Source of the DNA: a virus
Lineage: Duplodnaviria > Caudoviricetes
Virus record (IMG/VR): IMGVR_UViG_3300025121_000014
Coordinates: 168,945-232,944 of that record
Direction: 5' to 3' (one strand)
Length of the DNA: 64,000 nucleotides
Shown piece after piece: positions 29,706 to 64,000 of the stretch. The notes beneath the pieces are model-generated. The model saw nothing but the letters and a program-made list of their open reading frames with translations. It was not told the DNA's origin and made no database searches. Both the position numbers and the translations under genes were made by a program. How positions within the stretch are numbered: the stretch's first letter is position 1; each line of letters opens with the position of its first letter.

Positions 29706-29710
29706 ACCGT

Positions 29711-29719
29711 TATATATTA
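29711..29719 (-). promoter_or_regulatory. TAATATATA motif upstream of the endonuclease
   Basis: Exact motif 5 nt upstream of the 29705 ATG. Confidence 0.5.
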
Positions 29720-29752
29720 ATTATTGAAAATGTGTTTTTGATGGAAGGTATA

Positions 29753-35905: not shown

Positions 35906-36562
35906 TTAATTAATTATTATTTTTCTTGTTATTCTATCAAAAATTTCTTTTTGTTCAATTTCAGTAAAACCGTATAAATGAAAAGTATAGTATTTTTCTT
36001 CACCTGTCGAATAATCTAGTTCAGGACTTGATGTAGAATAATATGTATCTATCCAAAACTTTGAATTTGAAGTAGTATAAGCACCATTATATTCTAAAAA
36101 ATCAACGGATTTTTCAACAACAGTTTGTTCATCATATTTCCAATTATCAGGAATCATATTTTCACCTTCTTCATTTTCCCATCCTTGATCTGCATAATCA
36201 CCATTTTCAGCACTTTCTGGTGTTATTGTTTGATATGTAGTACGGATTATTCTTTCAGTTAAATTATCAATGTTTTTTTGTATTTCTTCATCTGTTGGTT
36301 TAAGTTTATCATTTAAATTATAACGTCTTATTTTATCTATTTTGTCAAGTGGTGATAATTTATTAAAATTTATATCCATTAAATCAGCAAGAGCTTTAAT
36401 AATTTCTTCATCACTTGGTTTAAATTTATCATCTAAATTTTCATCATTAATTTTTTTTAATCTATCAAGTGTATTTAGATTTAATAAAGCTTTTTCAATA
36501 TCTGCTTCTGATTTAGGTTTCAATAAATTTTTAATACCTTCATATGTTTTTAGATATTTCAT
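35906..36562 (-). CDS. Putative internal head protein: tag, two helical repeats, unknown C-terminal domain
   Basis: MKYLKTYEG-IKNLLKPKSEADIEKAL; LDDKFKPSDEEI and LNDKLKPTDEEI repeats. Confidence 0.65.
   Translation of the reverse strand: MKYLKTYEGIKNLLKPKSEADIEKALLNLNTLDRLKKINDENLDDKFKPSDEEIIKALADLMDINFNKLSPLDKIDKIRRYNLNDKLKPTDEEIQKNIDNLTERIIRTTYQTITPESAENGDYADQGWENEEGENMIPDNWKYDEQTVVEKSVDFLEYNGAYTTSNSKFWIDTYYSTSSPELDYSTGEEKYYTFHLYGFTEIEQKEIFDRITRKIIIN
36463..36519. repeat. Dispersed 57-bp repeat, copy 1 (copy 2 at 46037-46093)
   Basis: 55/57 identical by manual alignment. Confidence 0.85.
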
Positions 36563-36587
36563 ATTTTTAAACTAATTTTATATTATA

Positions 36588-36596
36588 TAATATATA
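36588..36596 (+). promoter_or_regulatory. TAATATATA motif
   Basis: Exact motif 22 nt upstream of the 36619 ATG. Confidence 0.45.
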
Positions 36597-36618
36597 TAAA
36601 AAATAAACAATAAAAAAT

Positions 36619-37239
36619 ATGAAAAAAGTATCTGTAATAATGGCTAGTTATCTCGGGTTCTACCCAGGAAGAAATACAAATCCAGATAAAAAATTTATAA
36701 GAGCAGTTAATAGTTTTTTAAAACAAACATATGAAAATAAAGAACTTGTAATAATAGCCGATGGTTGTAAGCAAACAGAAGAAATATATGAAAAATTTTT
36801 TAAACAATATGATAATATAAAATTAGTTTCTATACCTAAACAACAAATATATTCAGGAGAATGTAGAAATGCTGGATTAAACATAGCTACTGGTGAAATA
36901 ATATCTTATTTAGATAACGATGATGTATTAGGTAAAAAACATTTAGAAACAATTATGGAACAATTTACCGATGATGTTGATTTAGTTTATTACGATGATT
37001 ATCTTGTTATGAGTAAAGATTTTAAAACTTTACAAAAAAGAATAGTTGAAACAAGATATGGATCAATAGGAACTTCATCTATTACTCATAAAAATGTAGA
37101 TTGGATCAGATGGCGTACTGGTTATGGACACGATTGGTTATTTGTGCAAGAATGTATTATGAAAGGTATGCAGTTTAAAAAGTTAGAAAAAACACCAGCT
37201 TATTTAGTGGCACATTACGGTGGAGGTGGTGATTTTTAA
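36619..37239 (+). CDS. GT2 glycosyltransferase
   Basis: VSVIMASY, IIADGC, RNAGL, YLDNDD. Confidence 0.85.
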   Translation: MKKVSVIMASYLGFYPGRNTNPDKKFIRAVNSFLKQTYENKELVIIADGCKQTEEIYEKFFKQYDNIKLVSIPKQQIYSGECRNAGLNIATGEIISYLDNDDVLGKKHLETIMEQFTDDVDLVYYDDYLVMSKDFKTLQKRIVETRYGSIGTSSITHKNVDWIRWRTGYGHDWLFVQECIMKGMQFKKLEKTPAYLVAHYGGGGDF

Positions 37240-38103
37240 TTTTTCTAAAATATTATCATTATATCTAATCCTAATTAAATGAATATTGTTATTTTTACAA
37301 TATTCATTTTTTATTTTATCTCGTTTTTGTTGTTCATTAAATTTATTAATACCACCAAAAAAATCAATAGGTTTATAATGCTGTTCTCCGTCATATTCAA
37401 TACATATATTTTTTTCAGGTAAATAAAAATCAAAAGATAAAGAAAAAATATTTTTACAATCATCAAATTTTTTTTGAGTTTCAAATTTTATATTATTATG
37501 TTCTAATATTTTTTTAATTTCTATTTCACCTCTACTTCTACTACATATAGGACAACCATTTCCTTGTATGTGATTGTCTGGTCTTACTTTAAATTCACCA
37601 TGTTCAGAACATATTATAATAATTTTTGTTTTATTATTTGTATAATTCACTTTTGAGTAGTTATATTTATTATTATGAATTTTATTAGAATTTATTATAA
37701 ATTCGTCTTTTTTGTTATATTTGCCACTACATATAATACAACCATATCCAGATAAATGATCATTAGGTTTTTGTTCAAAATCACCATGTTTTGGACAATT
37801 TATAATAACTTTTGTTTTTGCGGTCTTATATACAACTTTATCATAGTTATATTTATTATTATGAATTTCGTTAGATTTTTGGATAAAATTTTTAATATTA
37901 TTTTTACCATTATTAAAACATAGTGGGCAACTAATACCGTTAATATGAATATATGGATATTGTTCTATTATTCCATGTGTTGGGCAAATATATTTAATTT
38001 TAGTTCTCCTATTAATATAATTTGATATATTATAATCATATTTATCACCATGTTTTTCTTTTGATTTTTTTATAAATTCTTCTGTTGTTAATTTTTTAGG
38101 CAT
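37204..38103 (-). CDS. Homing endonuclease with three Cys/His repeats (DUF723-like) and a Vsr-like nuclease domain
   Basis: Three KY.Y....Y.....K....C..HG......H..G..C..C repeats; FDFYLPEKNICIEYDGEQH. Confidence 0.8.
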   Translation of the reverse strand: MPKKLTTEEFIKKSKEKHGDKYDYNISNYINRRTKIKYICPTHGIIEQYPYIHINGISCPLCFNNGKNNIKNFIQKSNEIHNNKYNYDKVVYKTAKTKVIINCPKHGDFEQKPNDHLSGYGCIICSGKYNKKDEFIINSNKIHNNKYNYSKVNYTNNKTKIIIICSEHGEFKVRPDNHIQGNGCPICSRSRGEIEIKKILEHNNIKFETQKKFDDCKNIFSLSFDFYLPEKNICIEYDGEQHYKPIDFFGGINKFNEQQKRDKIKNEYCKNNNIHLIRIRYNDNILEKLKITTSTVMCH

Positions 38104-38337
38104 TTTAAATCATTAATTTTTTCTTTTAAAATTCTTTAAATCTAATTATTTAATTCTTCGTGTAAATTAGATAAAAAATATAGTTTTTAAATAGTATTTT
38201 CATACGTTTTTATTTTATATATAGTAATAGTAATATTAAAATTATCAATAAAAAAGATAAATAACATAAATCTATTAAGGATAAAATATACAAAATCAAA
38301 AAATATAAATGATATATTAAATAAGTGTTTAATAAAT

Positions 38338-38346
38338 TAATATATA
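38338..38346 (+). promoter_or_regulatory. TAATATATA motif
   Basis: Exact motif 31 nt upstream of the 38378 ATG. Confidence 0.5.
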
Positions 38347-38377
38347 CATTATAAAAATAAAAATAAACATATAACAT

Positions 38378-48182: not shown

Positions 48183-49076
48183 ATGAAAAAATTATTATTA
48201 TTATTAGCAAGTTTATTTCTTTTTATAAGTAATTTATTTACACAAAATTATACCGATACTATATATGAAAAAAGTGCAACCATTATAAATAATTATTATA
48301 TTGAAGATGACTATGATTATTATGATTCATATGATTACCGTATACACAGATTTCACAGAGATTATTTTTTTGCACCAAGGGTATATGTTTCATATAATTC
48401 ATGGTCATTTTCTTATTATAATTATTGGTCATTAGGTTATTATGATTATTATTATGATTATTATTATGATTATAACTATTGGTATTATACTACTAGGTAT
48501 AATCATTATTGGTATTATGGAAATTATTATAATCCTTATTGCAGTAATTACTGGTATTATGGAAATTATTATAATCCTTATTACAATTATGATAATAAAC
48601 CATTTAATAATGAATATTATGGTAATAGAAATAGAGTAGCTACAAATGGTAGTTCTAATAGAACGAATAATGGTGTAAGGTCAACTAATTCTATTACTAA
48701 CAAACCTGTTACTAATAGAATTGTTAGTAATAAACCTGTTACTAATAATAGAACTATACCATCAGAAAAACCAAAATATACTACACCTACAAGTTATAGT
48801 AAACCACGAGTTAGTAGTACAACAAATAATAACAGACAAAATAATTATAATCCTAGCTATACTAAACCTAGCACAACAAGATCTTATAATACAACACCAA
48901 CACGAAGTTCAACAAATATTAATAGTAATAAACCTAAAATAAATTCTACAACTTATTCTAAACCACAAACATCTACTGTAAAAAGTATTACACCAACACG
49001 AAGTTCAACAACAAGAAATACTATACCAACAAAACCACCTACCACACAAAGTTCAAGTTCTTCAAGAAAAAGATAA
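48183..49076 (+). CDS. Exported Tyr-rich and Ser/Thr/Arg-rich low-complexity protein
   Basis: Signal peptide MKKLLLLLASLFLFISNLFTQ; Y/D/N/W-rich core; S/T/R/P-rich tail. Confidence 0.7.
   Translation: MKKLLLLLASLFLFISNLFTQNYTDTIYEKSATIINNYYIEDDYDYYDSYDYRIHRFHRDYFFAPRVYVSYNSWSFSYYNYWSLGYYDYYYDYYYDYNYWYYTTRYNHYWYYGNYYNPYCSNYWYYGNYYNPYYNYDNKPFNNEYYGNRNRVATNGSSNRTNNGVRSTNSITNKPVTNRIVSNKPVTNNRTIPSEKPKYTTPTSYSKPRVSSTTNNNRQNNYNPSYTKPSTTRSYNTTPTRSSTNINSNKPKINSTTYSKPQTSTVKSITPTRSSTTRNTIPTKPPTTQSSSSSRKR
48510..48582 (+). repeat. 31-bp direct repeat, 42-bp period
   Basis: tggtattatggaaattattataatccttatt at 48510 and 48552 (encodes WYYGNYYNPY twice). Confidence 0.85.
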
Positions 49077-49079
49077 AAC

Positions 49080-49109
49080 AAAAAAGGGAAATATTAGTTT
49101 CCCTTTTTT
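49080..49109. terminator. Bidirectional intrinsic terminator
   Basis: AAAAAAGGGAAA-TATTAG-TTTCCCTTTTTT perfect 12-bp stem between convergent genes. Confidence 0.8.
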
Positions 49110-49240
49110 AAATTTTCATAATACCTTTTACGTCTTTTTTTACTTTTCATAGTTAATTTTAAACGATGTAATTTACGTTTCTTTTTGCCTTTTTTATCAA
49201 ATAATTTATTATCTTTTAATGTTTCTGTAGAATTTATCAT
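49094..49240 (-). CDS. Small highly basic protein (48 aa), possibly bS22-like
   Basis: Hand-translated MINSTETLKDNKLFDKKGKKKRKLHRLKLTMKSKKRRKRYYENLKKGN; follows 49254-49427 and stops inside the terminator. Confidence 0.5.
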   Translation of the reverse strand: MINSTETLKDNKLFDKKGKKKRKLHRLKLTMKSKKRRKRYYENLKKGN

Positions 49241-49253
49241 TATGAATTTTTAT

Positions 49254-49427
49254 TTATATATATTTATTTTTAATATTGTGAATTATTTTATTAATTTTTT
49301 TATATCGTTTTTCTAATAAATGTCTTTGAACAGCTTGATTCCAAGTTTCATCTGGTCTTAATCCTATTAAATCTTCATCAATAGATTTATCTGCTATTTT
49401 TTTTGCAATTGGTAATAACGATTTCAT
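49254..49427 (-). CDS. Small hypothetical protein (57 aa)
   Basis: Hand-translated MKSLLPIAKKIADKSIDEDLIGLRPDETWNQAVQRHLLEKRY...; starts 1 nt after the upstream stop. Confidence 0.55.
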   Translation of the reverse strand: MKSLLPIAKKIADKSIDEDLIGLRPDETWNQAVQRHLLEKRYKKINKIIHNIKNKYI

Positions 49428-49428
49428 A

Positions 49429-50622
49429 TTAACTAACTAAATATTTAAATAAATCAATTCTTTTTTTATTAATTTTTTCTAGAGTATATTTTTCTAAAAC
49501 TAATTCATTTAATGCTTCACCCATTTCTGTTACGGCACTAGGGTTTTCAACAAAAAATTTCATTTTATTAGCCCAACCCATTTTATCATTTTCATCAATT
49601 AAAAATCCGTGTTTTCCGTCTATCACATCTATTGTATATGGTCCAAAATTACTAGCAATAACTGGCATTTTATGAGCACCTGCTTCAATAATTTTTAATT
49701 GACTTTTAACCATATTAAATTTCATTCCTGATTTAAGAGGTGAAATAACAACATCGGCTTCATTATACATAGTACCATAAGTTAAAATAGGTTTAGTCCA
49801 TCTTCTTTGATAGAATTCGTCTTTAAATTTTTCATTATATCCATAATTTAACCTACCCATATCATCGTGTTTTCTCAACCAACTACTATGTTCACTGTTA
49901 GTAATCCATTTCCAACTATTAGTAAATATTGATTCAAATTGTGTCCAAACACTTCTTCTAGGATCATCCATATAAACCCCTGTTTGTGTTCTCATTCTTA
50001 AATCATATCCACACATAACCATTTGTGTTTTAGAAATAAATTCTTTATTAAATGATTTAAAAGAATCTTTTAATAACATTAAATCGGGTTTATGTGTAAT
50101 TCCGCCTCCCCAAATAAATCTTATTTTATCTGATTTTATCTTCTTAGGTATCCATTGAAATTCATTAGCGTTAACTGCATTCTCCACTATTAATACATTT
50201 TTATTAAATTCCATTATATCAGATGCAAAATAAGGTGTAGTTGTAGTAACATAATCAGCGGCAGATAATTGTGCTAAAACTGTTTCTTTAGAATTACTTT
50301 GTTTCCAATTTCTATAATTAATATGTGAGGGGTGAATTTCCCAATGATCATCAATATCAAATACTATTTTAATATTATATTTTTTAATTATACCATGAAA
50401 TTTCTCTGCATTAGTTCGATCTTTAAATGGAATTCCTTTATGATATACAATAATATTAAAATCTTTTAAATTTTCTTCAGTAAATCTAAATGTGAAATCA
50501 GTATTACTTAAAAAAGTAACTTCAATATCTGGATCATTTAATGCTAAATAAGGTGAATTAATCCTGTAATAACCTACACCGTCTTGGTCGTTACTAATAG
50601 CAAGAATTTTTATTTTATTCAT
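49429..50622 (-). CDS. GT-B (GT4-like) glycosyltransferase
   Basis: GVGYYRI, FDIDDHW, WGGGITH..D, KSQLKIIEAG, PVIASNFGPY. Confidence 0.8.
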   Translation of the reverse strand: MNKIKILAISNDQDGVGYYRINSPYLALNDPDIEVTFLSNTDFTFRFTEENLKDFNIIVYHKGIPFKDRTNAEKFHGIIKKYNIKIVFDIDDHWEIHPSHINYRNWKQSNSKETVLAQLSAADYVTTTTPYFASDIMEFNKNVLIVENAVNANEFQWIPKKIKSDKIRFIWGGGITHKPDLMLLKDSFKSFNKEFISKTQMVMCGYDLRMRTQTGVYMDDPRRSVWTQFESIFTNSWKWITNSEHSSWLRKHDDMGRLNYGYNEKFKDEFYQRRWTKPILTYGTMYNEADVVISPLKSGMKFNMVKSQLKIIEAGAHKMPVIASNFGPYTIDVIDGKHGFLIDENDKMGWANKMKFFVENPSAVTEMGEALNELVLEKYTLEKINKKRIDLFKYLVS

Positions 50623-50740
50623 ATATAAACATTTATGTTATTTTTTAATATTATATTGATAAAGGTTATGATGGAGTATCAAAAAATTTTATATATAATA
50701 TGTATTAATTAATTGTATTATAAAAAAATAATAAAGTTTT

Positions 50741-52177
50741 GTGTTAGTAAAAGAAAAAATTAACGTTAAAATTAAAAATAAAAGACAATTATATTCATTA
50801 AATAAAAATGGTATTAAAGGATTAGTTGGTGATGTAGTAGAAATGTTAATTAGTGAATTACCTATTGGATCTCATGAAATTATTCAAATAAAATGTGATA
50901 ATTGCGGTAAACTTAAAGATATGCAATTTAATAATTATTATAGATCAACAAACGGATTAACAGAAGAATATTATTGTAAAAATAAAGAATGTGTGAATAT
51001 AAAAAGAACATTAAATATTAGAAAAAAATATGGTGTAGATAATGTTTTTCAATTAAATGATGTAAAAGAAAAAATAAAAGAAACAAATTTAGAAAGATAT
51101 GGTGTCGAAAACCCTCAACAAAACAAAAAGATAAAAGAAAAAACAGAAGCAACAAATTTAGAAAGATATGGATTTAGAAATCAGTTTCAATGTAATTTAA
51201 TTAAAGAAAAAATAAAAGAAACAAACTTAGAAAGATATGGTGTTGAATATCCCCAACAAAGTAAAGAAATAAGATCAAAATATTCAACATTACACAAATC
51301 ATCTAAAGTAGAAAATGAATTATTATTATTTATTAAAAATAATTATGATAGTGAAATAGTATCAAATTCTAAAAAAATTATATTAGGGTATGAATTAGAT
51401 ATTTATATACCTGATTTAAAGTTAGCATTCGAATTTAATGGATTATATTGGCATAATGAATTAAGTAAAGATAAAAATTATCATCTTATAAAAACCGATT
51501 CTTGTGAAAAGCAAAATATCCAATTAATTCATATTTATGAAGATGATTGGGAATTTAAAAGGGATATAGTCAAATCAATGATTTTAAATAAGTTAGGTAA
51601 AACAATAAATAAAATATATGCAAGAAAAACTGAAATTAAAGAAATAACTGATAATAAATTAGTTAGGGGATTTTTAAATGAAAATCATATTCAAGGTTTT
51701 GTAGGATCATCAATTAAATTAGGATTGTTTTATGAAAATGAATTAGTTAGTTTAATGACTTTTGGTAAAAAACGTAAAATAATGAATGGGATTTCAAATA
51801 ATAGTGAATTAGAAATGTTACGTTTTTGTAATAAATTAAATACTAATGTTATAGGTGGTGCTTCAAAATTATTTAAATATTTTATAAGAAATTATAATTT
51901 TAAAGAAATAACTACATATGCAGATAGAAGTCAATCAAATGGAAAACTATATGAAATTTTAGGATTTAATTTTATACATAAAACAGAACCCAATTATTTT
52001 TATGTTGTTAATAGAAAAAGAGAATTTAGATTTAAATATAGAAAAGATGTTTTGATTAAAGAAGGTTATAATGCTAATAAATCAGAACATGAAATTATGT
52101 TAGAAAGAGGAATTTATAGAATTTATAATTCGGGAAATATAAAATATGTTCATACTTTAGATAATGTGTTTGACTAA
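50741..52177 (+). CDS. Hef-like homing endonuclease (23-aa repeats, PD-(D/E)XK nuclease, GNAT-like C-terminal domain)
   Basis: KETNLERYG repeats; ELDIYIPDLKLAFEFNGLYWH; C-terminal YARK..RFCNK..GGASKL..YADR. GTG start. Confidence 0.8.
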   Translation: MLVKEKINVKIKNKRQLYSLNKNGIKGLVGDVVEMLISELPIGSHEIIQIKCDNCGKLKDMQFNNYYRSTNGLTEEYYCKNKECVNIKRTLNIRKKYGVDNVFQLNDVKEKIKETNLERYGVENPQQNKKIKEKTEATNLERYGFRNQFQCNLIKEKIKETNLERYGVEYPQQSKEIRSKYSTLHKSSKVENELLLFIKNNYDSEIVSNSKKIILGYELDIYIPDLKLAFEFNGLYWHNELSKDKNYHLIKTDSCEKQNIQLIHIYEDDWEFKRDIVKSMILNKLGKTINKIYARKTEIKEITDNKLVRGFLNENHIQGFVGSSIKLGLFYENELVSLMTFGKKRKIMNGISNNSELEMLRFCNKLNTNVIGGASKLFKYFIRNYNFKEITTYADRSQSNGKLYEILGFNFIHKTEPNYFYVVNRKREFRFKYRKDVLIKEGYNANKSEHEIMLERGIYRIYNSGNIKYVHTLDNVFD

Positions 52178-52194
52178 GATAGATTATTTATATT

Positions 52195-52203
52195 TAATAT
52201 ATA
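52195..52203 (+). promoter_or_regulatory. TAATATATA motif
   Basis: Exact motif 27 nt upstream of the 52231 ATG. Confidence 0.5.
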
Positions 52204-52230
52204 GATAAAAAGTAATAAGTTTTATATACC

Positions 52231-54369
52231 ATGTCAACTTACTCAAAAAGAATAAAAATCCAATCAAATGTATTAATTGAATATATATTTGATAATAATA
52301 ATTTTAAATCAGAAAATTTTAATGTATTAACTAATGTTAAAGAACATTCTAAAAGTTTTTTATCAACATCTAATATAAATAATTATGATAATAGTTTATT
52401 TTTAATAGATTCTGTATTAAGTAAATATTCTAAAATGGATATTGAAAATTTTAATTATTTAAGAAATACAAAATATTTTACATCACCTGTACCGTATGAT
52501 AAAATAAAAATATATTTTCCAAGTGGGTTTGATTTTTATGATGATTATTTAGGATTTTATATAAACATATATATAAAAGGATATTCAGATAATACAAAAT
52601 ATTCTTTTTCTAATTTTCATTATTTAAAATCAAATACAAATGCAATAACATTATTTGAATTACCAGTGCCTTTTTATTATGATGAAAAATTTTGGGTTAG
52701 AAGTTTTGATTTAGATATACCATCAGTTGATACTGTATCATCACAAAGATTAATTACTAATACATCAAATACTGTCATACCAAATAGCATTAATCAAAAT
52801 TTAACTTATGGTGAAGGAATATCATCTACATCTCCAATATTTATTGATTTTCGTTTTATAACAGCAACAAAAACAATATTAGATATCCCATATTATTTTA
52901 CAGGAGATGCATATTCAGCATCATTACCACAAACACCAGAATTTAAGGAGTTAGGTATTAATGTAACAGAATCTTTAAATGGAGATTTTTTTGAAATATA
53001 TGCTACTTATTTAGGTTCAAATGAAAATATGGATGAATTTATAGCAGAAGAAGAAGCAAAAGGAAATAATATACAATTAGAATATGTTGTTAATTTATAT
53101 GAAGAAAATATTTTAACAATAACACAAACATTTCAAGTAACAGATAATTTTACAAAAAAAATGTTTTATAGACCAGTTATACAATTTTCTAATACTACTG
53201 CTGTTATTGATGTAGAATTAAAAATTGTTAATGTAATAGATGGTAGTTATATTTCTAAATTTGGATCATTAGGTATAACAAATAGTATTAATAAATATGG
53301 GTTAAGATTAAGTCAATTAAATATGAATGCAGGTGTTTTAAATCCAGAAATTTTTAATTTAAAAATTAAAAATACTATGAGTGTTTCAGGACAAATTAAT
53401 TCAATTATAGATGTTATGAAAGTACCATACCCTATAATGGTAGACAAATATAGAATTTTAACAAAAAGTACAAATGCTTCACCAGGAACTAATGATTATA
53501 CTCCTAATGGTTTATTAGAAATATTAATAACATCATTTGATAATGTTATTAATTTTAATATAGCAAAAGATATAAATTCAAAAGGTGAACCAATACCTTA
53601 TGATTTGTCAGAAATAAATACAAATTCTAAAATACTTTTAGTTTTTAAATCTGATAGTGAAAAATTAGAAAAAGAAATATTTTATGAAGGTGATAATAAT
53701 TACGAAATAGGTAATATATATTATAAATTACAAGAAAAAGATTATAATATTTTAAGAAGGATTTATAATAAAGGTTATAATAATTTTTATATTATTGTTA
53801 GTGCATCTGGTATTAATACACAAGTATATTCAGGTAAATTTTTATTTTATGAAGACGTTACATTTGTAAATAAGTCTACAACAGGAACAACGAGTGAATC
53901 GGTATCAAAAGGAGATCAAGAAATTATAAACACAGAAAGTATAGATAATGTAAATCCAAATGATAAAACAAATATGGATTTATATTATGAAGATAAATTA
54001 ATTGATAAAGGATATTACAATGCAATTGTTTACATTAAAGCATTGAGCGGGGCAGCAGGTGGATACATTAAAACGGATGCTAATAAATATTTTGTTAATA
54101 ATAATTTTAAAATTAAATTTAAACGTAATGATATTATGTATTATATAGAAAGAATTTACATTAAAGATTTAGTAGAATTAGAAAAACAAACATTTATAGA
54201 TACTGTTTATAGATTAGAATTAGGATTAGGTCAATCAAATAAAAAACGAAAAACAACTAAAATAAAACAAGTCGAAAAAGATACGGTTTATAAAAAACCA
54301 AAAAAACCATCAGGTGATATAGACGATAAATTAAATCAAATTAATATTGCAAAAAAGAATGAAAAATAA
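52231..54369 (+). CDS. Large hypothetical protein, possible structural protein
   Basis: 712-aa beta-rich ORF near the tail-tube-like gene. Confidence 0.55.
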   Translation: MSTYSKRIKIQSNVLIEYIFDNNNFKSENFNVLTNVKEHSKSFLSTSNINNYDNSLFLIDSVLSKYSKMDIENFNYLRNTKYFTSPVPYDKIKIYFPSGFDFYDDYLGFYINIYIKGYSDNTKYSFSNFHYLKSNTNAITLFELPVPFYYDEKFWVRSFDLDIPSVDTVSSQRLITNTSNTVIPNSINQNLTYGEGISSTSPIFIDFRFITATKTILDIPYYFTGDAYSASLPQTPEFKELGINVTESLNGDFFEIYATYLGSNENMDEFIAEEEAKGNNIQLEYVVNLYEENILTITQTFQVTDNFTKKMFYRPVIQFSNTTAVIDVELKIVNVIDGSYISKFGSLGITNSINKYGLRLSQLNMNAGVLNPEIFNLKIKNTMSVSGQINSIIDVMKVPYPIMVDKYRILTKSTNASPGTNDYTPNGLLEILITSFDNVINFNIAKDINSKGEPIPYDLSEINTNSKILLVFKSDSEKLEKEIFYEGDNNYEIGNIYYKLQEKDYNILRRIYNKGYNNFYIIVSASGINTQVYSGKFLFYEDVTFVNKSTTGTTSESVSKGDQEIINTESIDNVNPNDKTNMDLYYEDKLIDKGYYNAIVYIKALSGAAGGYIKTDANKYFVNNNFKIKFKRNDIMYYIERIYIKDLVELEKQTFIDTVYRLELGLGQSNKKRKTTKIKQVEKDTVYKKPKKPSGDIDDKLNQINIAKKNEK

Positions 54370-54387
54370 TAATATTTAATGAAAATA

Positions 54388-56112
54388 TTATTGTTCAGGA
54401 ATTTTTAAGTATTTAAATTTTAAATTACCAGAATTATAAATTCTATAAATCTTTCTTTCTAACATAATTTGGTGTTCGGTTTTATTAGCATCGTATCCTT
54501 CTTTAATTAAAATATCTTTTCTAAAATTAAATCTATGATGTCTGATATTATCGATAACATAATAATAATTTGGTTTAGATGTATGTATATATTTGAATCC
54601 TAATATTTCATATAATTTACCATTCGAATGACTTTTATCTGCATATGTGATTATTTCTTCAAAATCGTAATTCTTAATAAAATATTTAAATAATTTTGAA
54701 GCACCTCCAATTATATTTGTATTTAATTTATTACAATATCTAAGCATTTCAAATTGTCCTTCACTCGAAGTCGAATTCATAGCTTTTCTCAATTTACCAA
54801 AAGTCATTAATGATACCAATTCATTTTGAAAGAATAATCCTATTTTTACTTTTGAACCAACAAATCCTTGAATATGATTTTTATTTAAAAATTCTCTGAC
54901 TAATTTATTATCAACTACTTCTTTTACTTCAGTTTTTCTTGCATAAATTTTATTTAATGATTTACCTAACTTATTTAAAATCATTGATTTGATTACATCT
55001 TGTTTATAAATCCAATCATCTTCATATATATGAATAAGATTAATTCCTATTTTTTCACATAAATCGGATTTATTTTTATGATAGTTATTCGGTTTATTCA
55101 ATTCGTTGTGCCAATAAACTCCATTAAATTCAAATGCTAACTTTAAATCAGGTAAATAAATATCTAATTCTTTACCGTTTAATATTTTTCTATCATTTGT
55201 AATAATTTCTTTATCGTAATTTTCTTTTATAAAATCATAAAAGAAAATTTCTTTACCAGATGTTGTTCCATTATTTGGATTACATATTAAGCATTGTTTA
55301 GTATTAATTGCTTTTCTATTTTGAAATATAGACATAGATGTTTTAAATGTATGATTTTTTTTACAGTCACAGATCATTTCTAATTGTTTATTGTTATAAT
55401 CGACTGATAATATATTTGGATATTTTTTAATTAAATTTAATGATTTTGTAGCAATAACTTTATTAATAATATTGATATTTTGCATTGGATTATTATAACC
55501 GTATTTTTCTAAATTTGTTTTTATAGTTTTTGGTTTATTATTAAATGTGCTATCATTATATTTTTCTAATTTAGTTTTTTTTATTTTATTTTTTATATTA
55601 TTATTTTTATTAGGGTGTTCTACACCATACTTTTCTAAATTTGTTTTTTTATATTTATTTTTAGTTTCTGTTAATTGCATGATATGTTTTACCCCATATC
55701 TTTTTAAATTTGTTTTTATCTTTTTATTTTCGAATTCGTTTATCATAGACGACCTAACTACACCATATTTTTCTAAATTAGTTTCGTTTGTTTTCTTTTT
55801 AATTTCAATATTTTTCATTGGATGATCAACACCATATTTTTCTAAATTTGTTTCTTTATTTTTAATATATGAACATTTTTTACAATAATATTTTTCTATT
55901 AATCCATTTGATAATTTATGATATGTTCTGAATTCCATACTTTTAATTAAACCACATATATCACATTTAGCATCTATTTTTAAATGACTTCCCTTATTTA
56001 TATCTTTACTTTTAACGCTAATATGATCTTTTAAATTAGCATCATATCCTTTATTCAAAAAATATTTATGATTATATTTATTTATTTGTAATGTTATATA
56101 ATCATCAATCAT
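54388..56112 (-). CDS. Hef-like homing endonuclease (paralog of 50741-52177)
   Basis: KETNLEKYG repeats; ELDIYLPDLKLAFEFNGVYWH; same C-terminal domain. Confidence 0.8.
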   Translation of the reverse strand: MIDDYITLQINKYNHKYFLNKGYDANLKDHISVKSKDINKGSHLKIDAKCDICGLIKSMEFRTYHKLSNGLIEKYYCKKCSYIKNKETNLEKYGVDHPMKNIEIKKKTNETNLEKYGVVRSSMINEFENKKIKTNLKRYGVKHIMQLTETKNKYKKTNLEKYGVEHPNKNNNIKNKIKKTKLEKYNDSTFNNKPKTIKTNLEKYGYNNPMQNINIINKVIATKSLNLIKKYPNILSVDYNNKQLEMICDCKKNHTFKTSMSIFQNRKAINTKQCLICNPNNGTTSGKEIFFYDFIKENYDKEIITNDRKILNGKELDIYLPDLKLAFEFNGVYWHNELNKPNNYHKNKSDLCEKIGINLIHIYEDDWIYKQDVIKSMILNKLGKSLNKIYARKTEVKEVVDNKLVREFLNKNHIQGFVGSKVKIGLFFQNELVSLMTFGKLRKAMNSTSSEGQFEMLRYCNKLNTNIIGGASKLFKYFIKNYDFEEIITYADKSHSNGKLYEILGFKYIHTSKPNYYYVIDNIRHHRFNFRKDILIKEGYDANKTEHQIMLERKIYRIYNSGNLKFKYLKIPEQ

Positions 56113-56158
56113 AGATATAGTTTTTTCTTATATATAAAAAATTATGAAGATTGTTTTT

Positions 56159-56167
56159 TAATATATA
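56159..56167 (+). promoter_or_regulatory. TAATATATA motif
   Basis: Exact motif 19 nt upstream of the 56187 ATG. Confidence 0.5.
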
Positions 56168-56186
56168 ATTTAAAATAATCTAAAAA

Positions 56187-56834
56187 ATGAGAATAAGTTC
56201 GCAGAATAATCAATTCATATTTAATTTACCAGAAGATTTTATATCTCGTAGATTAGAAGAACAATTTCAATTATTAATGGATAATAATTTAATACCATAT
56301 GCAGATGTTATGGCATATATTAATTCTACAATTAAAGATATAGTTTTTCCGAGTTTATCATATAATACAGTTGAACAAACTATATATCATGGTAAAAAAG
56401 TAAATTGGAGAGAATCGGGTAGTGTTACAGATAAATTTCAACATGAATTAGATGTCAATTTTCGATCAGTAGATTCTCATTTAAATTATTTTATTATTCT
56501 ACAAATATTAAATGATTTTTATTTACAAAAACCAAATTATTTAGATGCAATATCAATAAAAGTATTAAATAACGAAGGTGATTTAATTTATACAGTAATA
56601 TTTAAAGATATTATTTATAAATCATTATCAGAATTAAGAATGGCTTATTATAAAACAGATTTTAATGAACAAGTTTTTACTGTTCAATTTAATTATACCT
56701 GGATAGATATAGTTTGGGAATTAAATGAAGAAAGTCCAAGTGATGGTTTATCTATATTTGATATTCCAATTGTTGAAGTAGATCCGAGAGATACAAAAAG
56801 ATTAGAAACAGAACATAAAAAAAGATTAAGTTAA
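56187..56834 (+). CDS. Tail-tube-like protein (T4 gp19/gp54 fold)
   Basis: IVFPSLS, ELDVNFR.VD..LNY, IKVLN.EG....V.F, VFTVQFNY: pattern typical of tube proteins. Confidence 0.6.
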   Translation: MRISSQNNQFIFNLPEDFISRRLEEQFQLLMDNNLIPYADVMAYINSTIKDIVFPSLSYNTVEQTIYHGKKVNWRESGSVTDKFQHELDVNFRSVDSHLNYFIILQILNDFYLQKPNYLDAISIKVLNNEGDLIYTVIFKDIIYKSLSELRMAYYKTDFNEQVFTVQFNYTWIDIVWELNEESPSDGLSIFDIPIVEVDPRDTKRLETEHKKRLS

Positions 56835-56901
56835 ATTTAAACTTTTAAATTACTTCAATATATATACCTTAAATAAGTATTAATTTAAAAACAAAAAAAA
56901 A

Positions 56902-58155
56902 ATGATAAAAGAAGAAATTGTAGATCAATCTACAAAAAAAATAGAATGGCAATTATCCAATAACGATTTTGATTTTGATAATGTTATATTAGATAATCGT
57001 ATTCCTAAATTTAAAGATCTCATAGAAGAATTAAATAATTCGGTTGGTAAATTTAATTCGGAAACAATGAGCAAATTTAAATTATATGAAAGATATGTTA
57101 ATGTCGGTCAAATAAATGTAGGTATGATTATTAATGGTGCTATAATAGAAATTAACAGCAAAGAAGTTGTAATCGATATAGGTGGAAAGGATAATATTTT
57201 TATTGATAGAAAAGGATCAGAAGATAAAATTTGTAGACAATTAAAAATAGGTCAATTTATTGATGTTTTAATTACAGATGTTAATGAATCTCCATACCTT
57301 ATTAAAGGTTCTGTTGCAGAATTAGTTAAATATAATGTGGAGCAAAAAATGAAAATTTATTTTGTAGAAAATACACCAATTATTTGTTTCATTAAAGAAA
57401 TAATTCCTGCTGGTTATTTAGTAGATATCGAAATCGAAGGTATAGTTATTGATGCATTTATGCCTAATACATTAGCTGATGTAAATAAATTATACGATAA
57501 TAATATATTATTAAATCAACGAGTTTATGTTATGTTAGAAACATTACAACAAGATAAAGGAATTTATGTTGTTAGTAGAAAAAAATACCTTAAAACTTTA
57601 ATTCCAGAAAAAATTAAAGAACTTAAAAAATTTGATAAAAATAAAGTATATGAAGGTAGAGTAACTGGAACTAGAAGTTTTGGAATATTTATTCAATTTG
57701 AAGAATGTCTTACTGGTATGATACATAAAGCTAATATTAGAGAAGATTATCAAAATAAAATAAATGAAATTGAACCAGGAACTTTAATAGATTTTTATAT
57801 TAAAGACGTTATTAAAGGTGGTAGCCAAATTATTTTGACACAAATTCTTACTGATTCGTTATGGGATACGATTAGAGTAGGTGATACGATTGAAGGTAAA
57901 GTAATAACAGTTAAACCATTTGGTGCTCTTATCGAATTAGATTATGAAACAAACGGCTTAATCCAAACTTCTTACATTAATAAAAATAATAAAAAATTAT
58001 TAAGTGGTGATAAAATTAAAGTAGTTGTTATTTCAATAATAAGGGACGATAGAAAAATTTATTTAACATTTGATGATGATACTGAAACTGTTAATAGATT
58101 AAAAGATAAATCAAATGATTTAGAAAAATTAAAACAGAAATATAGTAGAAATTAA
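56902..58155 (+). CDS. rpsA: Ribosomal protein S1-like (four S1 domains)
   Basis: GAIIEINSKEVVIDIGGK, AFMP, VVSRKKYL, GRVTGTRSFGIFI...GMIH, GKVITVKPFGALIEL...GLI. Confidence 0.85.
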   Translation: MIKEEIVDQSTKKIEWQLSNNDFDFDNVILDNRIPKFKDLIEELNNSVGKFNSETMSKFKLYERYVNVGQINVGMIINGAIIEINSKEVVIDIGGKDNIFIDRKGSEDKICRQLKIGQFIDVLITDVNESPYLIKGSVAELVKYNVEQKMKIYFVENTPIICFIKEIIPAGYLVDIEIEGIVIDAFMPNTLADVNKLYDNNILLNQRVYVMLETLQQDKGIYVVSRKKYLKTLIPEKIKELKKFDKNKVYEGRVTGTRSFGIFIQFEECLTGMIHKANIREDYQNKINEIEPGTLIDFYIKDVIKGGSQIILTQILTDSLWDTIRVGDTIEGKVITVKPFGALIELDYETNGLIQTSYINKNNKKLLSGDKIKVVVISIIRDDRKIYLTFDDDTETVNRLKDKSNDLEKLKQKYSRN

Positions 58156-58175
58156 ATATGTATAATTTCCTTATT

Positions 58176-58212
58176 TAAAAATCCCTGAATTTTTCTTTAT
58201 CGGGGATTTTTA
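58176..58212 (+). terminator. Intrinsic terminator after rpsA
   Basis: TAAAAATCCCTGA...TCGGGGATTTTTA 13-bp stem with one G-U pair. Confidence 0.7.
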
Positions 58213-58216
58213 GTTT

Positions 58217-58225
58217 TAATATATA
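58217..58225 (+). promoter_or_regulatory. TAATATATA motif
   Basis: Exact motif just after the terminator, 32 nt upstream of the 58258 ATG. Confidence 0.55.
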
Positions 58226-58257
58226 AAAAATCACACAAAATCAATTAAATATAAAAT

Positions 58258-58812
58258 ATGAAAAATGAATTATTAGATTATGATACTGCGAAATTTAAAA
58301 AATTTGGTGGTGAAGTAATTGATGATGTAGCTGAATACATCAAGAATTATATTAAAGACCGGAGTAATATCAGAATTGTCGTAGGATGTGATTCACAACA
58401 AAAAAGAAGAATTACATTATATGCTATTACTATTGTATTATATGATGAAGTAAAGCATAAAGGAGCACACGTATTATTCTTAAGACAAAAATTGAAAAAA
58501 AATAAAGATATGTTTTCAAGGTTAATGAACGAATGCTTATTTTCATTAAATCTTGCTGAATGGTTAAATGAAAAGTTAAAATATTCATATACACCACCTA
58601 AATTTGAAGTAAATTCTTATGATGGTAATTTACCAACTAAAAAAATTGAAGTTCATGTTGATGTAAATCCAATTGCAGGTAGAAATAAACAAAATAAATC
58701 TAATATTGTTTATAATTCTGTTATGGGTATGGTAAGTGGAATGGGTTATAAAGTCGTTTCTAAACCATATGCATATGCTGCTAGTTGTGCTGCAGATTTA
58801 TTAGTAAAATAA
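58258..58812 (+). CDS. RNase H-like protein (YkuK/DUF458)
   Basis: VGCDSQ, RL.NE..FS, IEVHVDVN, KP.AYAASCAAD. Confidence 0.8.
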   Translation: MKNELLDYDTAKFKKFGGEVIDDVAEYIKNYIKDRSNIRIVVGCDSQQKRRITLYAITIVLYDEVKHKGAHVLFLRQKLKKNKDMFSRLMNECLFSLNLAEWLNEKLKYSYTPPKFEVNSYDGNLPTKKIEVHVDVNPIAGRNKQNKSNIVYNSVMGMVSGMGYKVVSKPYAYAASCAADLLVK

Positions 58813-58935
58813 TATTTCTGTTTTTAATATATAATATGTATGATGAATAAAATTTACACAAAAATAAAATATTCCGTTATCGTTTTTAATTAAACTTTAA
58901 TGGATTTTTTATTTAAAAAATAATGTAATAAATTT

Positions 58936-59685
58936 ATGAATAGAGTTTATCCTAAAAAAAGAAACGGAAATGGAAATGGAAATGGTAGTGATGTTATGGA
59001 GTTAATAAAATTAGAAGAAATTACTAAATCACCAAATCAAATTTTAAAAAGAAATATAAAAATTAAATGTAAAAACGAGAAACAAAAAGAATTTATAAAA
59101 CTTATCGATAATAATCAAATAATATTATGTGATGGTCCATCTGGTTGTGGAAAATCTCATTTATCTATATTGAAATCGTTAAGTTATCTTACAGATGAAA
59201 ATACAAAATATAATAAAATATATATTTTAACACCGACTGTCGAAATAACTAAAAATGGTGTAGGTTTTTTACCTGGTTCTTTTTCTGATAAAGTATCTAT
59301 GTTTATGCATAGTGTATATAATTTATTCGATAAAATAATTGGTAAAGAAAATAGTGATAAATTATTAAAAGAAAATATAATTGAAATTTTAGGTCTAGGG
59401 TATATAAGAGGAGAAAATTTAGATAATTGTCTACTTATCGTAGATGAAGCTCAGAATATATCAAAAAAAGAAATGTTAACAATATTAACTAGGATAGGTA
59501 GTAATTGTAAAATGATTATATCTGGTGATATAATGCAAATTGATAATTTTAAAAATAAGGAAGAAAGTGGATTATATCATGCTATTCAAAATTTAAAAGA
59601 TATTAATGATATAGGTATATTTAAATTTACAATAGACGATATAGTAAGAAATACAATTATAAATAAAATATTAGAAAAATATTAA
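58936..59685 (+). CDS. phoH: PhoH-family ATPase
   Basis: GPSGCGKS, GFLPG, RG..LDN..IVDEAQN, LTRIG, GD..QID. Confidence 0.92.
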   Translation: MNRVYPKKRNGNGNGNGSDVMELIKLEEITKSPNQILKRNIKIKCKNEKQKEFIKLIDNNQIILCDGPSGCGKSHLSILKSLSYLTDENTKYNKIYILTPTVEITKNGVGFLPGSFSDKVSMFMHSVYNLFDKIIGKENSDKLLKENIIEILGLGYIRGENLDNCLLIVDEAQNISKKEMLTILTRIGSNCKMIISGDIMQIDNFKNKEESGLYHAIQNLKDINDIGIFKFTIDDIVRNTIINKILEKY

Positions 59686-59763
59686 TATTTCATAAATAAT
59701 TTATTATAATATTTTTGTTTTTTGTATAAATATTTTTTATCTTAGCGATATTAAATAATTTAT

Positions 59764-61134
59764 ATGAACCAATTACAAATATTAAAAGTTATTGAATCTT
59801 GGCGTAAACCGGGAAGATTAGGTGTATCTATTAATGATGTAGATAAATATTTAAACTATGAAGATGTAAAACATTGGTTTTATGTAAATGGTTTTAGTGA
59901 TAATTGGTTTTATATTGCCGTTTATGATAGTTTAATTGTGGGTTATTATTTTAGAAATAATAGAGTTGGTGGAAGAGTTGAAGTATTACCCGCTTTTAGA
60001 AAAAGCGGTATATATGGTCATCTTAATGTTTATAAAGAATTATTAAATAGAATTACAGAAAGATTTCCTAATGAATTTTATTCCACAGTTAGTTGTTTAA
60101 ATATTCCATCATTATCTTCACATTTTAAAAATAATTTTAAAATCGATGTCATTAACCATTATGAAAATGAAAAAGATGATTTCATTTATAATTTGATAAC
60201 AAAAGTTGTAATGGGTAAAAAAAATATTGATGAAAATCCTATAAGTAAAAGAAAAATAAAATTAAATTTGTTTTATGAATATGGTGATAAATCTTATAGA
60301 TATGATGATAAAACGAACTTTTTTAATATCAAAAAAATGTTCATTGATTATTCACGTGAAATAAAATGTTATGTTTTAACACGTAATGGTAAAATATATT
60401 TAGAAAAAAAAGATAACGAATTCGAATTTCCAGAAGGATATAAAAATAAATTTAATGTATATGACGTTAAATATAAATTAATATACCCTAAAGTATCAAC
60501 TAAAATAATTAAAGATAAATCTGTTGTAAAAAAAGATGATTTAAATATTGAAGAAATTAATAAAAAAAATACTTTAATTGATTGGTTTAATAAATTGAAA
60601 CCACTTAATGTTAATTATAGATTATCAATGGAAATACAAAAAAAAGAAATTAGAATAAACAAAGCTAGAAAAAAACAAAAAGAAATGGATAAAATAAAAA
60701 AAGCCGAAAAATTAAAAGTAGAAAAACTTCAAAAATCTGAAAAAATAAGAATCAAAAAACTTAATATAAAAAATAAATTTCTTAAAATTTTTAGATTTAA
60801 AAATTCAAATGAAACAGAAATAGAAAATCTACAAAGAAGCATTTTTGAACAATCTAAAAAATTAAATAAAAATGAAATTAATGATATTAGAGAAAATTTC
60901 ATTAAAAAAGGTAAAGAATTAAAAACTGATATTGTTCCACGTGGAACAATACCAAAAAAGAATGTTGTTAATGGTTTTGCAAGTCATAGACATCTTAAAA
61001 AAAATGAAGCAATTATATCACCTGATGGTTTTATAGAAACCAAACCTAAAATAGAAGAATTTAAGAAAAAAGAAATTTCTGATGATGGAAAAGAAACATT
61101 ATGGGGAAAAATACAAAACAATTTAAATAATTAA
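59764..61134 (+). CDS. Hypothetical protein with a GNAT-like N-terminus and Lys-rich coiled C-terminus
   Basis: VEVLPAFRKSGIY and N.PS...H.KNNF resemble GNAT motifs A and B. Confidence 0.55.
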   Translation: MNQLQILKVIESWRKPGRLGVSINDVDKYLNYEDVKHWFYVNGFSDNWFYIAVYDSLIVGYYFRNNRVGGRVEVLPAFRKSGIYGHLNVYKELLNRITERFPNEFYSTVSCLNIPSLSSHFKNNFKIDVINHYENEKDDFIYNLITKVVMGKKNIDENPISKRKIKLNLFYEYGDKSYRYDDKTNFFNIKKMFIDYSREIKCYVLTRNGKIYLEKKDNEFEFPEGYKNKFNVYDVKYKLIYPKVSTKIIKDKSVVKKDDLNIEEINKKNTLIDWFNKLKPLNVNYRLSMEIQKKEIRINKARKKQKEMDKIKKAEKLKVEKLQKSEKIRIKKLNIKNKFLKIFRFKNSNETEIENLQRSIFEQSKKLNKNEINDIRENFIKKGKELKTDIVPRGTIPKKNVVNGFASHRHLKKNEAIISPDGFIETKPKIEEFKKKEISDDGKETLWGKIQNNLNN

Positions 61135-61866
61135 TTATCTTTTGTGTTCATTTGAATAAACTCCTTCTACTATTGCATCATCTGGTAATACTAAATTAAA
61201 TCTACTACGTTGATAATTACAATATAAATTTCCACCTACATATAATTTTTTACCAATAGTAGTAATAGCATTATTATTTAATTGCAAATCCCCTTCTACT
61301 CTTAAATTATTTGGAATTTTAGTTATATTATTTTTATTTAAATTCAAATTCTTATTTACTTTAAAATTATTTGGAATTTCAGATATTTTATTATTTGATA
61401 AGTAAATACTGCCATCATAACTATTATAATTTGTTTTTAATACTTTTAATTTTTTTGGGAATTCTGTTATATTGTTATTTGGTGCGTACAAATATCCATT
61501 AATTGTAAAATTATCTGGTAATTTATCTATTTTTAAATCATCGTGTAATAAATTTAGGGAATTGATTATTAAAGTTTTATTATAAAAACAAATACCTTGT
61601 TCGTTTCTTGGTAATAAATCATAATCTAGTTTATTTCTAATAATTTGATATATTTTTTCATCATTTGATAAGTCATCTAATGCAAAAATCAATTCTTCTT
61701 TGGTTGGTAGAAAATTTTTAGGCAATCCAAATTCATAAATTTTTTCTACCTGTTCAAATACGTTTAAACTTTTTAATGAATTTAATATTTCATTATCAGA
61801 TTTACCTTTAAGGGTATCCATAATACTTTCATTGATAAATATTTGGAATTTTGTAATCATTTTCAT
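61135..61866 (-). CDS. CTS plus two helical repeats plus LRR-like repeat protein
   Basis: KFQIFINE|SIMDTLKGKSDNEI; about five 22-aa L.V.G.L.L....I..[LI]P.. repeats. Confidence 0.7.
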   Translation of the reverse strand: MKMITKFQIFINESIMDTLKGKSDNEILNSLKSLNVFEQVEKIYEFGLPKNFLPTKEELIFALDDLSNDEKIYQIIRNKLDYDLLPRNEQGICFYNKTLIINSLNLLHDDLKIDKLPDNFTINGYLYAPNNNITEFPKKLKVLKTNYNSYDGSIYLSNNKISEIPNNFKVNKNLNLNKNNITKIPNNLRVEGDLQLNNNAITTIGKKLYVGGNLYCNYQRSRFNLVLPDDAIVEGVYSNEHKR

Positions 61867-63354: not shown

Positions 63355-64000
63355 ATGTTAAAAGCATTCAAATATAGAATCTATCCAAACCAAGATCAAA
63401 AAGAATTACTTTCAAAGATTTTTGGTCAAGTGAGATTTGTATATAATCTAGGTTTAGAAACTAAAATTAGTGCTTATACTGGAAACAAAAAACACCTTGA
63501 TATGTTTAATTTAACTAAACAAATTAAAGAATTAAAAGATACTGAATGCCAATGGCTTAACGAAAGCCCATCTCAAGCACTTCAAATGAGTATTAGAAAT
63601 CTTGATAATGCTTATACAAACTTTTTTAGAGGAAAAGGTTTTCCAAAATTTAAGAATAAATATTCAAAACAATCATTTCAGTTACCTCAAGGTGTATATT
63701 TAAGTGATACCAAAAAACAAATTTTCATACCAAAATTAAAATTCACAGATATAGATTATCATAGAGAATTTAAAGGTGAAATTAAAACGGTAAATGTAAG
63801 TAAATCAGTAACTAATAAATATTATATAAGTATTTTAGTAGATAACAAAAAAGAATTACCTGAAAAACAACCAATTAAATTAAATACAACGGTTGGTGTT
63901 GATTTAGGGATTAAAGATTTTGCTATCACTTCAGATGGAAAGAAATTCAAGAACCACGATTTCTTTAAATCTGCTTTAAGAGAACTAAGGGTTGAACAGC
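63355..64000 (+). CDS. tnpB: TnpB RNA-guided endonuclease (IS200/IS605 family), truncated by the window end
   Basis: Hand-translated MLKAFKYRIYPN...GQVRFVYN...SQALQ....LDNAY.NFF....FPKFK...VGVDLGIKDFAITSDG (RuvC-I Asp present); no tnpA upstream. Confidence 0.92.
   Translation, partial: MLKAFKYRIYPNQDQKELLSKIFGQVRFVYNLGLETKISAYTGNKKHLDMFNLTKQIKELKDTECQWLNESPSQALQMSIRNLDNAYTNFFRGKGFPKFKNKYSKQSFQLPQGVYLSDTKKQIFIPKLKFTDIDYHREFKGEIKTVNVSKSVTNKYYISILVDNKKELPEKQPIKLNTTVGVDLGIKDFAITSDGKKFKNHDFFKSALRELRVEQ

Follow-up and report, generated by a model that had tools for sequence, protein, structure and literature searches.

A tag-linked alpha-helical repeat module in candidate head-internal proteins of a T4-related huge phage

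The stretch of DNA analyzed here (the window) comprises 64,000 nt of the IMG/VR virus record IMGVR_UViG_3300025121_000014 (positions 168,945–232,944). It forms part of the genome of a T4-related huge groundwater phage, and its GC content is 19–26% along the length and 22% overall. Five of its genes, designated P0001 to P0005, encode proteins in which a short N-terminal tag is followed by one to four copies of a 32–33-residue repeat unit (the module), and the module is followed by a C-terminal domain (the cargo). An initial annotation made from the sequence had described the shared repeat and read tag plus repeats as an N-terminal cassette that had spread onto new cargos by recombination.

P0001 (218 aa; 35906..36562, minus strand) begins with the tag variant MKYLKTYE (36539–36562), which recurs in the family members P0059 and P0078. 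The unit profile described below places two units and a partial third at about 36248–36517, and the cargo (35909–36247) is an acidic orphan. P0002 (244 aa; 43360..44094, plus strand) has the tag MKTYEEFINE (43360–43389), four units of 32 aa defined by the profile (43390–43797) and a DUF8033 domain (43798–44091). P0003 (160 aa; 44800..45282, minus strand) begins with MKNFKNFING, where a glycine replaces the glutamate of the putative cleavage site, and contains one unit (about 45127–45252) with an orphan cargo behind it. P0004 (45282..46142, minus strand) has 286 aa when counted from the methionine at 46142, a start that agrees with independent gene calls; its tag MKTFQEFANE (46113–46142) is followed by one mosaic unit plus a partial unit (about 45960–46112) and by ankyrin repeats (45285–45959). 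P0005 (243 aa; 61135..61866, minus strand) has a tag ending in FQIFINE, two profile-defined units (about 61612–61827) and a leucine-rich repeat (LRR)-like cargo that begins with LLPRNEQGIC (61135–61611).

The open reading frames of the five genes translate as the initial annotation described, and the copy numbers given there (2, 4, 1, 1 and 2 from P0001 to P0005) are those of full units in the profile, with partial extra units in P0001 and P0004. A regular expression for the PKS-E-x-E-I motif matched these five reading frames alone within the window. The next-best six-frame match to the unit profile in the 64 kb scored 5.9 bits, as compared with at least 49 bits for the five genes. With leave-one-gene-out profiles, all five genes scored above 500 shuffled sequences; the scores were 54–64 bits for P0001, P0002 and P0004, moderate for P0005 (22 bits versus 10) and marginal for P0003 (15 bits versus 12). 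An independent library search also recovered all five, including P0003, the weakest member in the profile test, at E = 1.7e-5. The conserved D/N-L-L-x-P-K-S-E-x-E-I sequence that had been placed between tag and repeats is present but does not form a separate linker: later units open with P-[ST]-D-E-E-I, to which it is homologous, and it therefore represents the beginning of unit 1. Ten units align cleanly when anchored on the helix start P-x-[SD]-E-x-E-I, and the spacing in the five genes is mostly 32 aa (40 aa for unit 2 of P0001).

The DNA of the cassettes points to ongoing recombination between paralogs. As claimed in the initial annotation, 36463–36519 and 46037–46093 are identical at 55 of 57 positions, and this segment lies within a wider match of 85% over 128 nt (36419–36546 versus 45993–46120). 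The single unit of the ankyrin gene P0004 is indeed a mosaic, which follows unit 1 of P0001, switches to the register of unit 2 (36299–36351 versus 45993–46045, 49 of 53 positions identical) and returns to unit 1 in the LDDKFK part. Units 2 and 3 of P0002 are 94% identical in DNA sequence and reflect a recent tandem duplication of a unit, and two alleles of this gene from other assemblies, which are otherwise identical to it, lack exactly one 32-aa unit. Taken together, near-identical cassettes on unrelated cargos, register switching, duplication and whole-unit differences between strains show that the cassette acts as homologous substrate for gene conversion and unequal crossing-over. Because unrelated cargos, for example DUF8033, have the cassette in common, the genes cannot all descend in full length from one ancestor. 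The combination of an N-terminal cassette with unrelated cargos is thus supported, and the movement or homogenization of cassettes by recombination between paralogs is well supported by these sequence comparisons.

In AlphaFold2 models, helix A of each unit spans 8–10 residues and helix B spans 10; they are followed by a 3-10 turn at D-x-K-F, and the unit closes with a short linker, L-P. The unit starts with the helix cap P-[ST]-D-E-E and ends with the conserved 3-10 turn L-D-x-K-F-L-P. The predicted local distance difference test (pLDDT) score was 86 for P0002 and 82 for P0010, a family member from outside the window, with units 1–4 of the latter above 95. The initial annotation could not assign the repeat to a known family, and neither could we. 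Pfam gave no match over the module, and PHROGs and a PDB sequence search gave none to the unit. In structure comparisons, a Foldseek search of the PDB returned E values of 0.12 or higher, VIA-align against the PDB gave a best Z score of 4.2, AlphaFold DB clusters gave E values of 0.26 or higher, and the ESM Atlas gave TM scores of 0.33 or lower. At the level of sequence and predicted model, the unit is a new kind of alpha-repeat. The mean net charge per unit across the family is only −0.7 (neutral to mildly acidic), and for this reason the idea that the module is a strongly acidic DNA mimic was dropped.

Following proposals of the initial annotation, a 33-position unit profile (A3) was searched against 1.84 billion protein representatives, and the C-terminal domains behind the repeat were catalogued. 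The search found 94 clusters at E ≤ 1e-3, including 30 at E ≤ 1e-10. The initial annotation had named two outcomes that would speak against its proposal, a match to a known family of unrelated function and an occurrence mainly in proteins that lack the tag and are absent from virions; no known family matched, and the repeat was found almost only behind the tag. The first unit begins at residue 16–25 in nearly all members, and the cassette consensus is M-K-x-[FY]-x-x-[FY]-(I)-N-E-[SG]-[LIV]-[RK]-D-x-[ML]-x-[PG]-K-S. The N-E-[SG] site lies within 35 residues of the start in 83 of 99 members (most of the others have variant tags), and its Glu is the sole cassette position conserved in more than 90%. 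Proteins carry 1–9 units (mode 3), with a family-wide spacing of 32 aa in 62 of about 120 adjacent unit pairs. The cargo behind the last unit has a median length of 105 aa. Ankyrin repeats are the commonest cargo (23/99); the others include DUF8033 (6), an LRR-like subfamily, DUF7448, further families seen singly and many orphans, and 7 of 97 proteins consist of the module only (for example P0024 and P0010, the latter with 280 aa and 8 units). Literature searches on DUF8033, and on capsid targeting together with ankyrin, found nothing relevant. The LRR-like cargos (window 61135–61611; locus L001 10001–10979; P0036, P0055, P0056, P0067 and P0073) start with L-L-P-R-N-E-x-G-I-C-x-Y and continue with repeats of L-P-D-N-L-x-V-x-G-x-L-x-C; their LRR matches in PHROG and Pfam are weak.

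The tag closely resembles the capsid targeting sequence (CTS) found on T4 internal proteins. In the T4 record, IPIII and IPII begin with MKTYQEFIAE and IPI with MKTFKEFT. The P0002 tag is identical to that of IPII/IPIII at 8 of 10 residues, including positions 4, 7, 8 and 10, and a gene in the window with a tag and no module (start at 46389) begins with MKTFKEFN, which equals 7 of the first 8 residues of IPI. In the T4 CTS, residues 4 and 7 serve targeting and residues 8 and 10 serve processing, and an Asp at position 10 blocks processing without blocking targeting (PMC9026906). These mapped positions are the ones conserved in the tags of the present family. The tags therefore have the sequence features of a T4-type CTS, which is a propeptide of 10–19 residues with targeting positions 4/7 and processing positions 8/10, except that P0003 lacks the Glu and the P0001 variant is shortened. 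In addition, the "internal head protein" family phrog_2667 aligns weakly to residues 1–13 (E = 0.018). T-even internal proteins have diverse bodies under one conserved capsid targeting sequence (PMC3012670; PMC9026906).

A candidate processing enzyme was found in relatives of the window. Contig G008 (135 kb), which carries tagged ankyrin genes with the unit, encodes a gp21-family protease, a scaffold and a Gp23-type capsid protein. The first two are joined in a 798-aa protein (L026, about 46.5–48.9 kb), whose N-terminal part is a head maturation protease by its match to phrog_207 (E = 6.7e-25) and, weakly, to Peptidase_S77; the remainder of the protein consists of about 12 copies of the 14-aa scaffold repeat Y-S-E-Y-[IL]-A-E-N-[LV]-D-K-N-I-x. 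The Gp23-family capsid gene lies directly downstream. The fusion protein has 1,743 database relatives, many of them scored as PF03420, on contigs of up to 735,411 bp; PF03420 was found in 1 of 15 related IMG/VR fragments, but these are just 1–19% complete, so that its absence from the other 14 says little. The sequence [LI]-N-E-S-L-G is conserved at the protease/scaffold junction of the fusion family; across this family, NE[SG] occurs 376 times as compared with 97 expected (about four-fold). Among homologs of the G008 capsid protein (L050 316–1956), the last Glu before the shell core lies within [SQ]-[LMI]-N-E-N-V in 118 of 120 sequences. This motif is about 62 residues ahead of the shell core and behind a charged helical N-terminal stretch like that of the T4 gp23 propeptide, and it is likely where the propeptide is cleaved from the capsid proteins in this clade. 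A BLASTP comparison between the G008 protein and the N-terminal fragment of T4 gp23 was not significant, and the proposed boundary follows from the conserved last Glu. Because hydrophobic-N-E recurs in the tags, where protease and scaffold meet, and at the boundary of the capsid propeptide, it may be read as the cleavage site of this lineage for a gp21-type prohead protease. The T4 CTS (Y-Q-E-F-I-A-E) itself resembles one 14-aa scaffold repeat, and T4 gp22 begins with MLKEQLIAEA.

If the protein is cut after this Glu, the module could either remain on the mature protein or be lost with the tag. We examined the module/cargo junction in 53 members with simple architecture. The motifs [LIVM]-x-E or x-N-E were not enriched in the 30 residues past the last unit (2.6 versus 2.2 per 100 aa in the cargo). 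Since cleavage-like motifs show no enrichment there, the module is probably retained in the mature protein. The alternative that tag and module together form a long propeptide, which is removed and cleared from the capsid to leave the cargo alone, has a precedent in giant phages, where long propeptides of obscure purpose are found (PMC5694885), and it would suit the invariable position of the module between tag and cargo. However, the junction has no conserved motif of this kind, and nothing would remain of the module-only proteins after such processing. We regard it as very unlikely, also in view of the internal cut sites described next, which precede each module and do not follow it.

Internal copies of the cassette were identified in long members of the family. 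In 23 long proteins, 40 internal sites have the sequence N-E-[SG]-[LIV]-[RK]-D-x-[ML]-x-[PG]-K-[ST] and lead into a unit, and one protein of 1,591 aa contains seven internal cassettes. The units fall into a cassette-initial type ("x-K-[ST]"), found behind an N-E site in 105 of 117 cases, and a tandem-continuing type ("P-x-D"), which accounts for 110 of the 126 tandem units; an N-E site precedes none of the tandem units (0/126). At the internal sites, P3 is hydrophobic in 30 of 40 as compared with a background of 36% (p = 6e-7). The aromatic residues, in contrast, are depleted: those at P3/P4 are present at 15% of the internal sites versus 83% of the N-terminal ones, and those at P6/P7 at 38% versus 91%. 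Selection has thus kept the module and the determinants that T4 genetics assigns to processing at internal sites and has relaxed the targeting determinants, the pattern expected of a polyprotein that is brought in by its first tag and then cut. Because internal cassettes retain module and cut site and lose the aromatics, the module most likely works in the mature protein rather than in targeting.

This last point bears on the possibility that the module is a true scaffold-docking or protease-presenting element, which would extend the tag for efficient loading and cleavage in very large capsids. The predicted helix that spans the putative cut site continues into the first unit, in the segment S-L-R-D-K-M behind the cut the hydrophobic residues keep the spacing that they have in the 14-aa scaffold repeat, and the cassette-initial units are a distinct subtype; all three would agree with a docking role. 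Internal cassettes, on the other hand, would need no docking, and the later tandem units have no scaffold-like features. Tagged proteins without the module are frequent in the genome of the window, and because they are common there, the module is not needed for the function of the tag. A complex prediction with two copies of the G008 scaffold-repeat segment and the tag/first unit of one G008 ankyrin protein returned no verdict (score 0.00) and speaks neither for nor against binding. A docking role of the module therefore seems to us quite unlikely.

A different objection is that the cassette could be the N-terminus of intracellular host-interaction paralogs of the ankyrin/LRR type that are never packaged, in which case its resemblance to the T4 tag would be ancestral or coincidental. 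As noted above, ankyrin heads the list of cargos, large viruses often expand such families, and the packaging of the family is an indirect conclusion. The functionally mapped T4 CTS positions are nevertheless conserved, and the most conserved residue is the Glu of the cut site. Internal cassettes have kept the processing determinants and not the targeting ones. The identical x-N-E motif is found at the protease/scaffold junction and at the capsid propeptide boundary, and the presence of one cassette on unrelated cargos such as DUF8033 excludes descent as whole genes. On these grounds we consider a purely intracellular family unlikely.

Our preferred reading is that the five genes are members of a large head-internal ("internal protein"-like) family of T4-related huge phages, and taken as a whole we hold this explanation to be slightly better than an even bet. 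By analogy with T4 genetics, the first 8–13 residues would act as a T4-type CTS, whose aromatics at about positions 4 and 7 and subsequent hydrophobic-Asn-Glu would dock the protein into the prohead scaffold core. Cleavage by a gp21-family prohead protease would then take place behind the almost invariant Glu, with N-E on one side of the cut and S/G on the other. The mature protein would begin with S/G-[LIV]-[RK]-D-x-[ML]-x-[PG]-K-S and continue with 1–9 tandem units of 32–33 aa, and, as the two are not separated by a second conserved cleavage motif, the module would stay joined to its cargo, a small domain with a median length of about 105 aa. The recombination of conserved cassette DNA between paralogs, with units gained and lost in register, places one leader on unrelated cargos and gives rise to long proteins built as serial cut-site/module/cargo cassettes. 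More speculatively, the proteins may be ejected with the DNA, and the cargos may act on host proteins. For the module we favor a part played once the protein is mature, as a stalk or leader of variable length that affects packaging geometry or ejection, and in module-only members as a structural internal protein in its own right; a host-side role is likewise conceivable.

A more far-reaching version of this proposal strikes us as possible but doubtful. Here, the capsids of the clade would be loaded with an effector arsenal consisting in part of polyproteins cut at x-N-E/S, and each piece would have its own alpha-repeat leader, active once the cut is made and perhaps ordering the proteins or priming them for their way out through the tail. 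The tag would mimic one 14-residue scaffold repeat. A position-specific scoring matrix of the scaffold repeat gave ranks that are only suggestive of this: T4 IPII and IPIII took places 1 and 2 of 42, P0002 came second among 82, and the remaining tags scored lower.

Several points weigh against the assignment to a head-internal family. The P0003 tag lacks the Glu at which cleavage is proposed. Many tagged proteins have no module, so the role of the tag, whatever it may be, does not depend on it. T4 internal proteins are basic, whereas the units described here range from neutral to mildly acidic, with a mean net charge of −0.7. Ankyrin multigene families of large viruses are often not virion proteins. 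The link to the protease comes from related contigs rather than from the head genes of the window itself, and the likeness between tag and scaffold repeat is only suggestive. Finally, all members are metagenomic, and it is from their sequences that we infer packaging and cleavage.

The T4 internal proteins IPI, IPII, IPIII and Alt are the closest known counterparts. Like the present family, they begin with a short propeptide whose sequence is almost identical (MKTYQEFIAE in T4, MKTYEEFINE here) and has Glu at the cut site, and they have diverse and fast-evolving bodies behind one conserved tag. The phage lineage is T4-related, and the related contig G008 encodes both a protease of the gp21 family and a capsid protein of the Gp23 family. 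They differ in having no repeat module between tag and body and no polyprotein-like chains of several cassettes. The preferred motif is [LI]-x-E followed by A in T4 and x-N-E followed by S/G here, and T4 has small basic proteins in place of the ankyrin/LRR-like cargos. In phiKZ, SPN3US and 201phi2-1, the functional part of head-internal proteins also follows an N-terminal region, whose length runs from tens of residues to more than 100. Inner-head proteins of the phiKZ/SPN3US type have propeptides of more than 100 residues that are processed after Glu by a gp21-like protease (PMC5694885). The long region is cut off in those phages, whereas here the sole conserved cut site precedes the module and none is detectable after it; the phiKZ-type propeptides also have no relation to the module in sequence or fold.

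The initial annotation had compared the architecture with polymorphic effector systems. This likeness is apparent in the conserved N-terminal trafficking part, the repeat/linker region as a recombination substrate and the swappable C-terminal domains, and also in some long multi-domain chains that are probably protease-processed. It does not extend to toxin domains, as no toxin family was among the Pfam/PHROG matches of the cargos; immunity genes were not looked for systematically. Polymorphic toxins are delivered via a secretion system, while the route here would be the capsid. Phage polyvalent proteins follow a similar concept of a conserved trafficking part with swappable domains. As a tandem two-helix unit of about 32–33 residues in variable copy number, the repeat resembles the alpha-solenoid repeats of ankyrin (33 aa), TPR (34 aa) and PPR (35 aa), but there was no significant profile or fold match between the unit and known helical repeat families (Ank, TPR, PPR, HEAT, Sel1 and LRR variants). 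As far as our literature searches reach, the repeat module and how tightly it is coupled to the tag are new, and so are the chains of several cassettes, the x-N-E motif in common with protease and capsid protein, and the scale of the family in megaphages.

To our knowledge, huge phages (0.2–0.7 Mb) are known only from metagenomes. With the cassette as a sequence signature (tag, x-N-E cut site and unit), proteins that may be packaged can be picked out in such genomes; many of these candidates are ankyrin/LRR-like binders that could act on the host upon infection. The internal cassettes amount to a natural experiment that separates CTS targeting from processing, in agreement with the T4 genetics of the 1990s. 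The unit itself is compact, confidently predicted and without a known structural relative, and its copy number differs between near-identical strains. Tag and module might also serve as a protein-packaging handle in T4-type display or delivery systems.

The surroundings of the five genes contain further tagged genes. P0002 starts 3 nt past the end of a gp6-like baseplate wedge gene (41696..43357, plus strand; phrog_219, E = 3e-16) and, because it adjoins this gene, lies in a structural gene run. Just upstream of the wedge gene is a tag-only gene without the module (41002..41694, plus strand; MKKFNEFILNE). Two others, 46144..46389 (MKTFKEFN) and 47049..47495 (MKRFKQFINES), lie in the minus-strand run of P0003 and P0004, where four of the six genes between 44800 and 48067 are tagged. 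The divergent neighbor of this run (48183–49076) encodes a protein of 297 aa, the N-terminus of which resembles a signal peptide and which contains a low-complexity region rich in Tyr and Asp. A further unit-bearing member, P0225, is located elsewhere in the genome of the window amid additional tag-only genes. Another module gene of this genome adjoins an IS200/IS605-type TnpB-like gene (MLKAFKYRIYPNQ...) at locus L045 (11260–11931); a second gene of this type lies at the end of the window (63355–64000), and L045 also has a Cas12f1-like_TNB gene.

The window encodes a T4-style split type II topoisomerase, PhoH, a CCA-adding enzyme and homing endonucleases, and it contains a large sugar/glycosyltransferase block. 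Contigs from groundwater metagenomes carry genes identical to those of the window. Neither megablast with 38000–46400 nor tblastn with the P0002 cassette gave any match among 50,697 deposited phages, and the window is therefore without a cultured relative. Related IMG/VR fragments have a GC content of 20–27% and a CheckV completeness of 1–19%, which implies genomes of roughly 0.6–0.7 Mb. Two family members reside on a contig of 616,614 bp, near a T4 gene-30.3-family gene, a tRNA synthetase gene and the gene of a 2,129-aa tail-fibre-like protein.

Some other features of the window were noted. The type II topoisomerase is encoded in two genes (26297–31552) with a 427-aa open reading frame (28422–29705) between them, and Pfam domains confirmed both halves. 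Two paralogous homing-endonuclease genes (50843–52177, plus strand; 54388–56112, minus strand; phrog_3339, E about 1e-122) form an inverted repeat of 817 nt with 79% identity; both have internal 69-nt tandem repeats, and a 712-aa orphan gene (52231–54369) lies between them. A 299-aa protein (37204–38103) consists of three direct repeats of about 186 nt that are 61–73% identical, and it is 52% identical to the product of a gene on contig G001.

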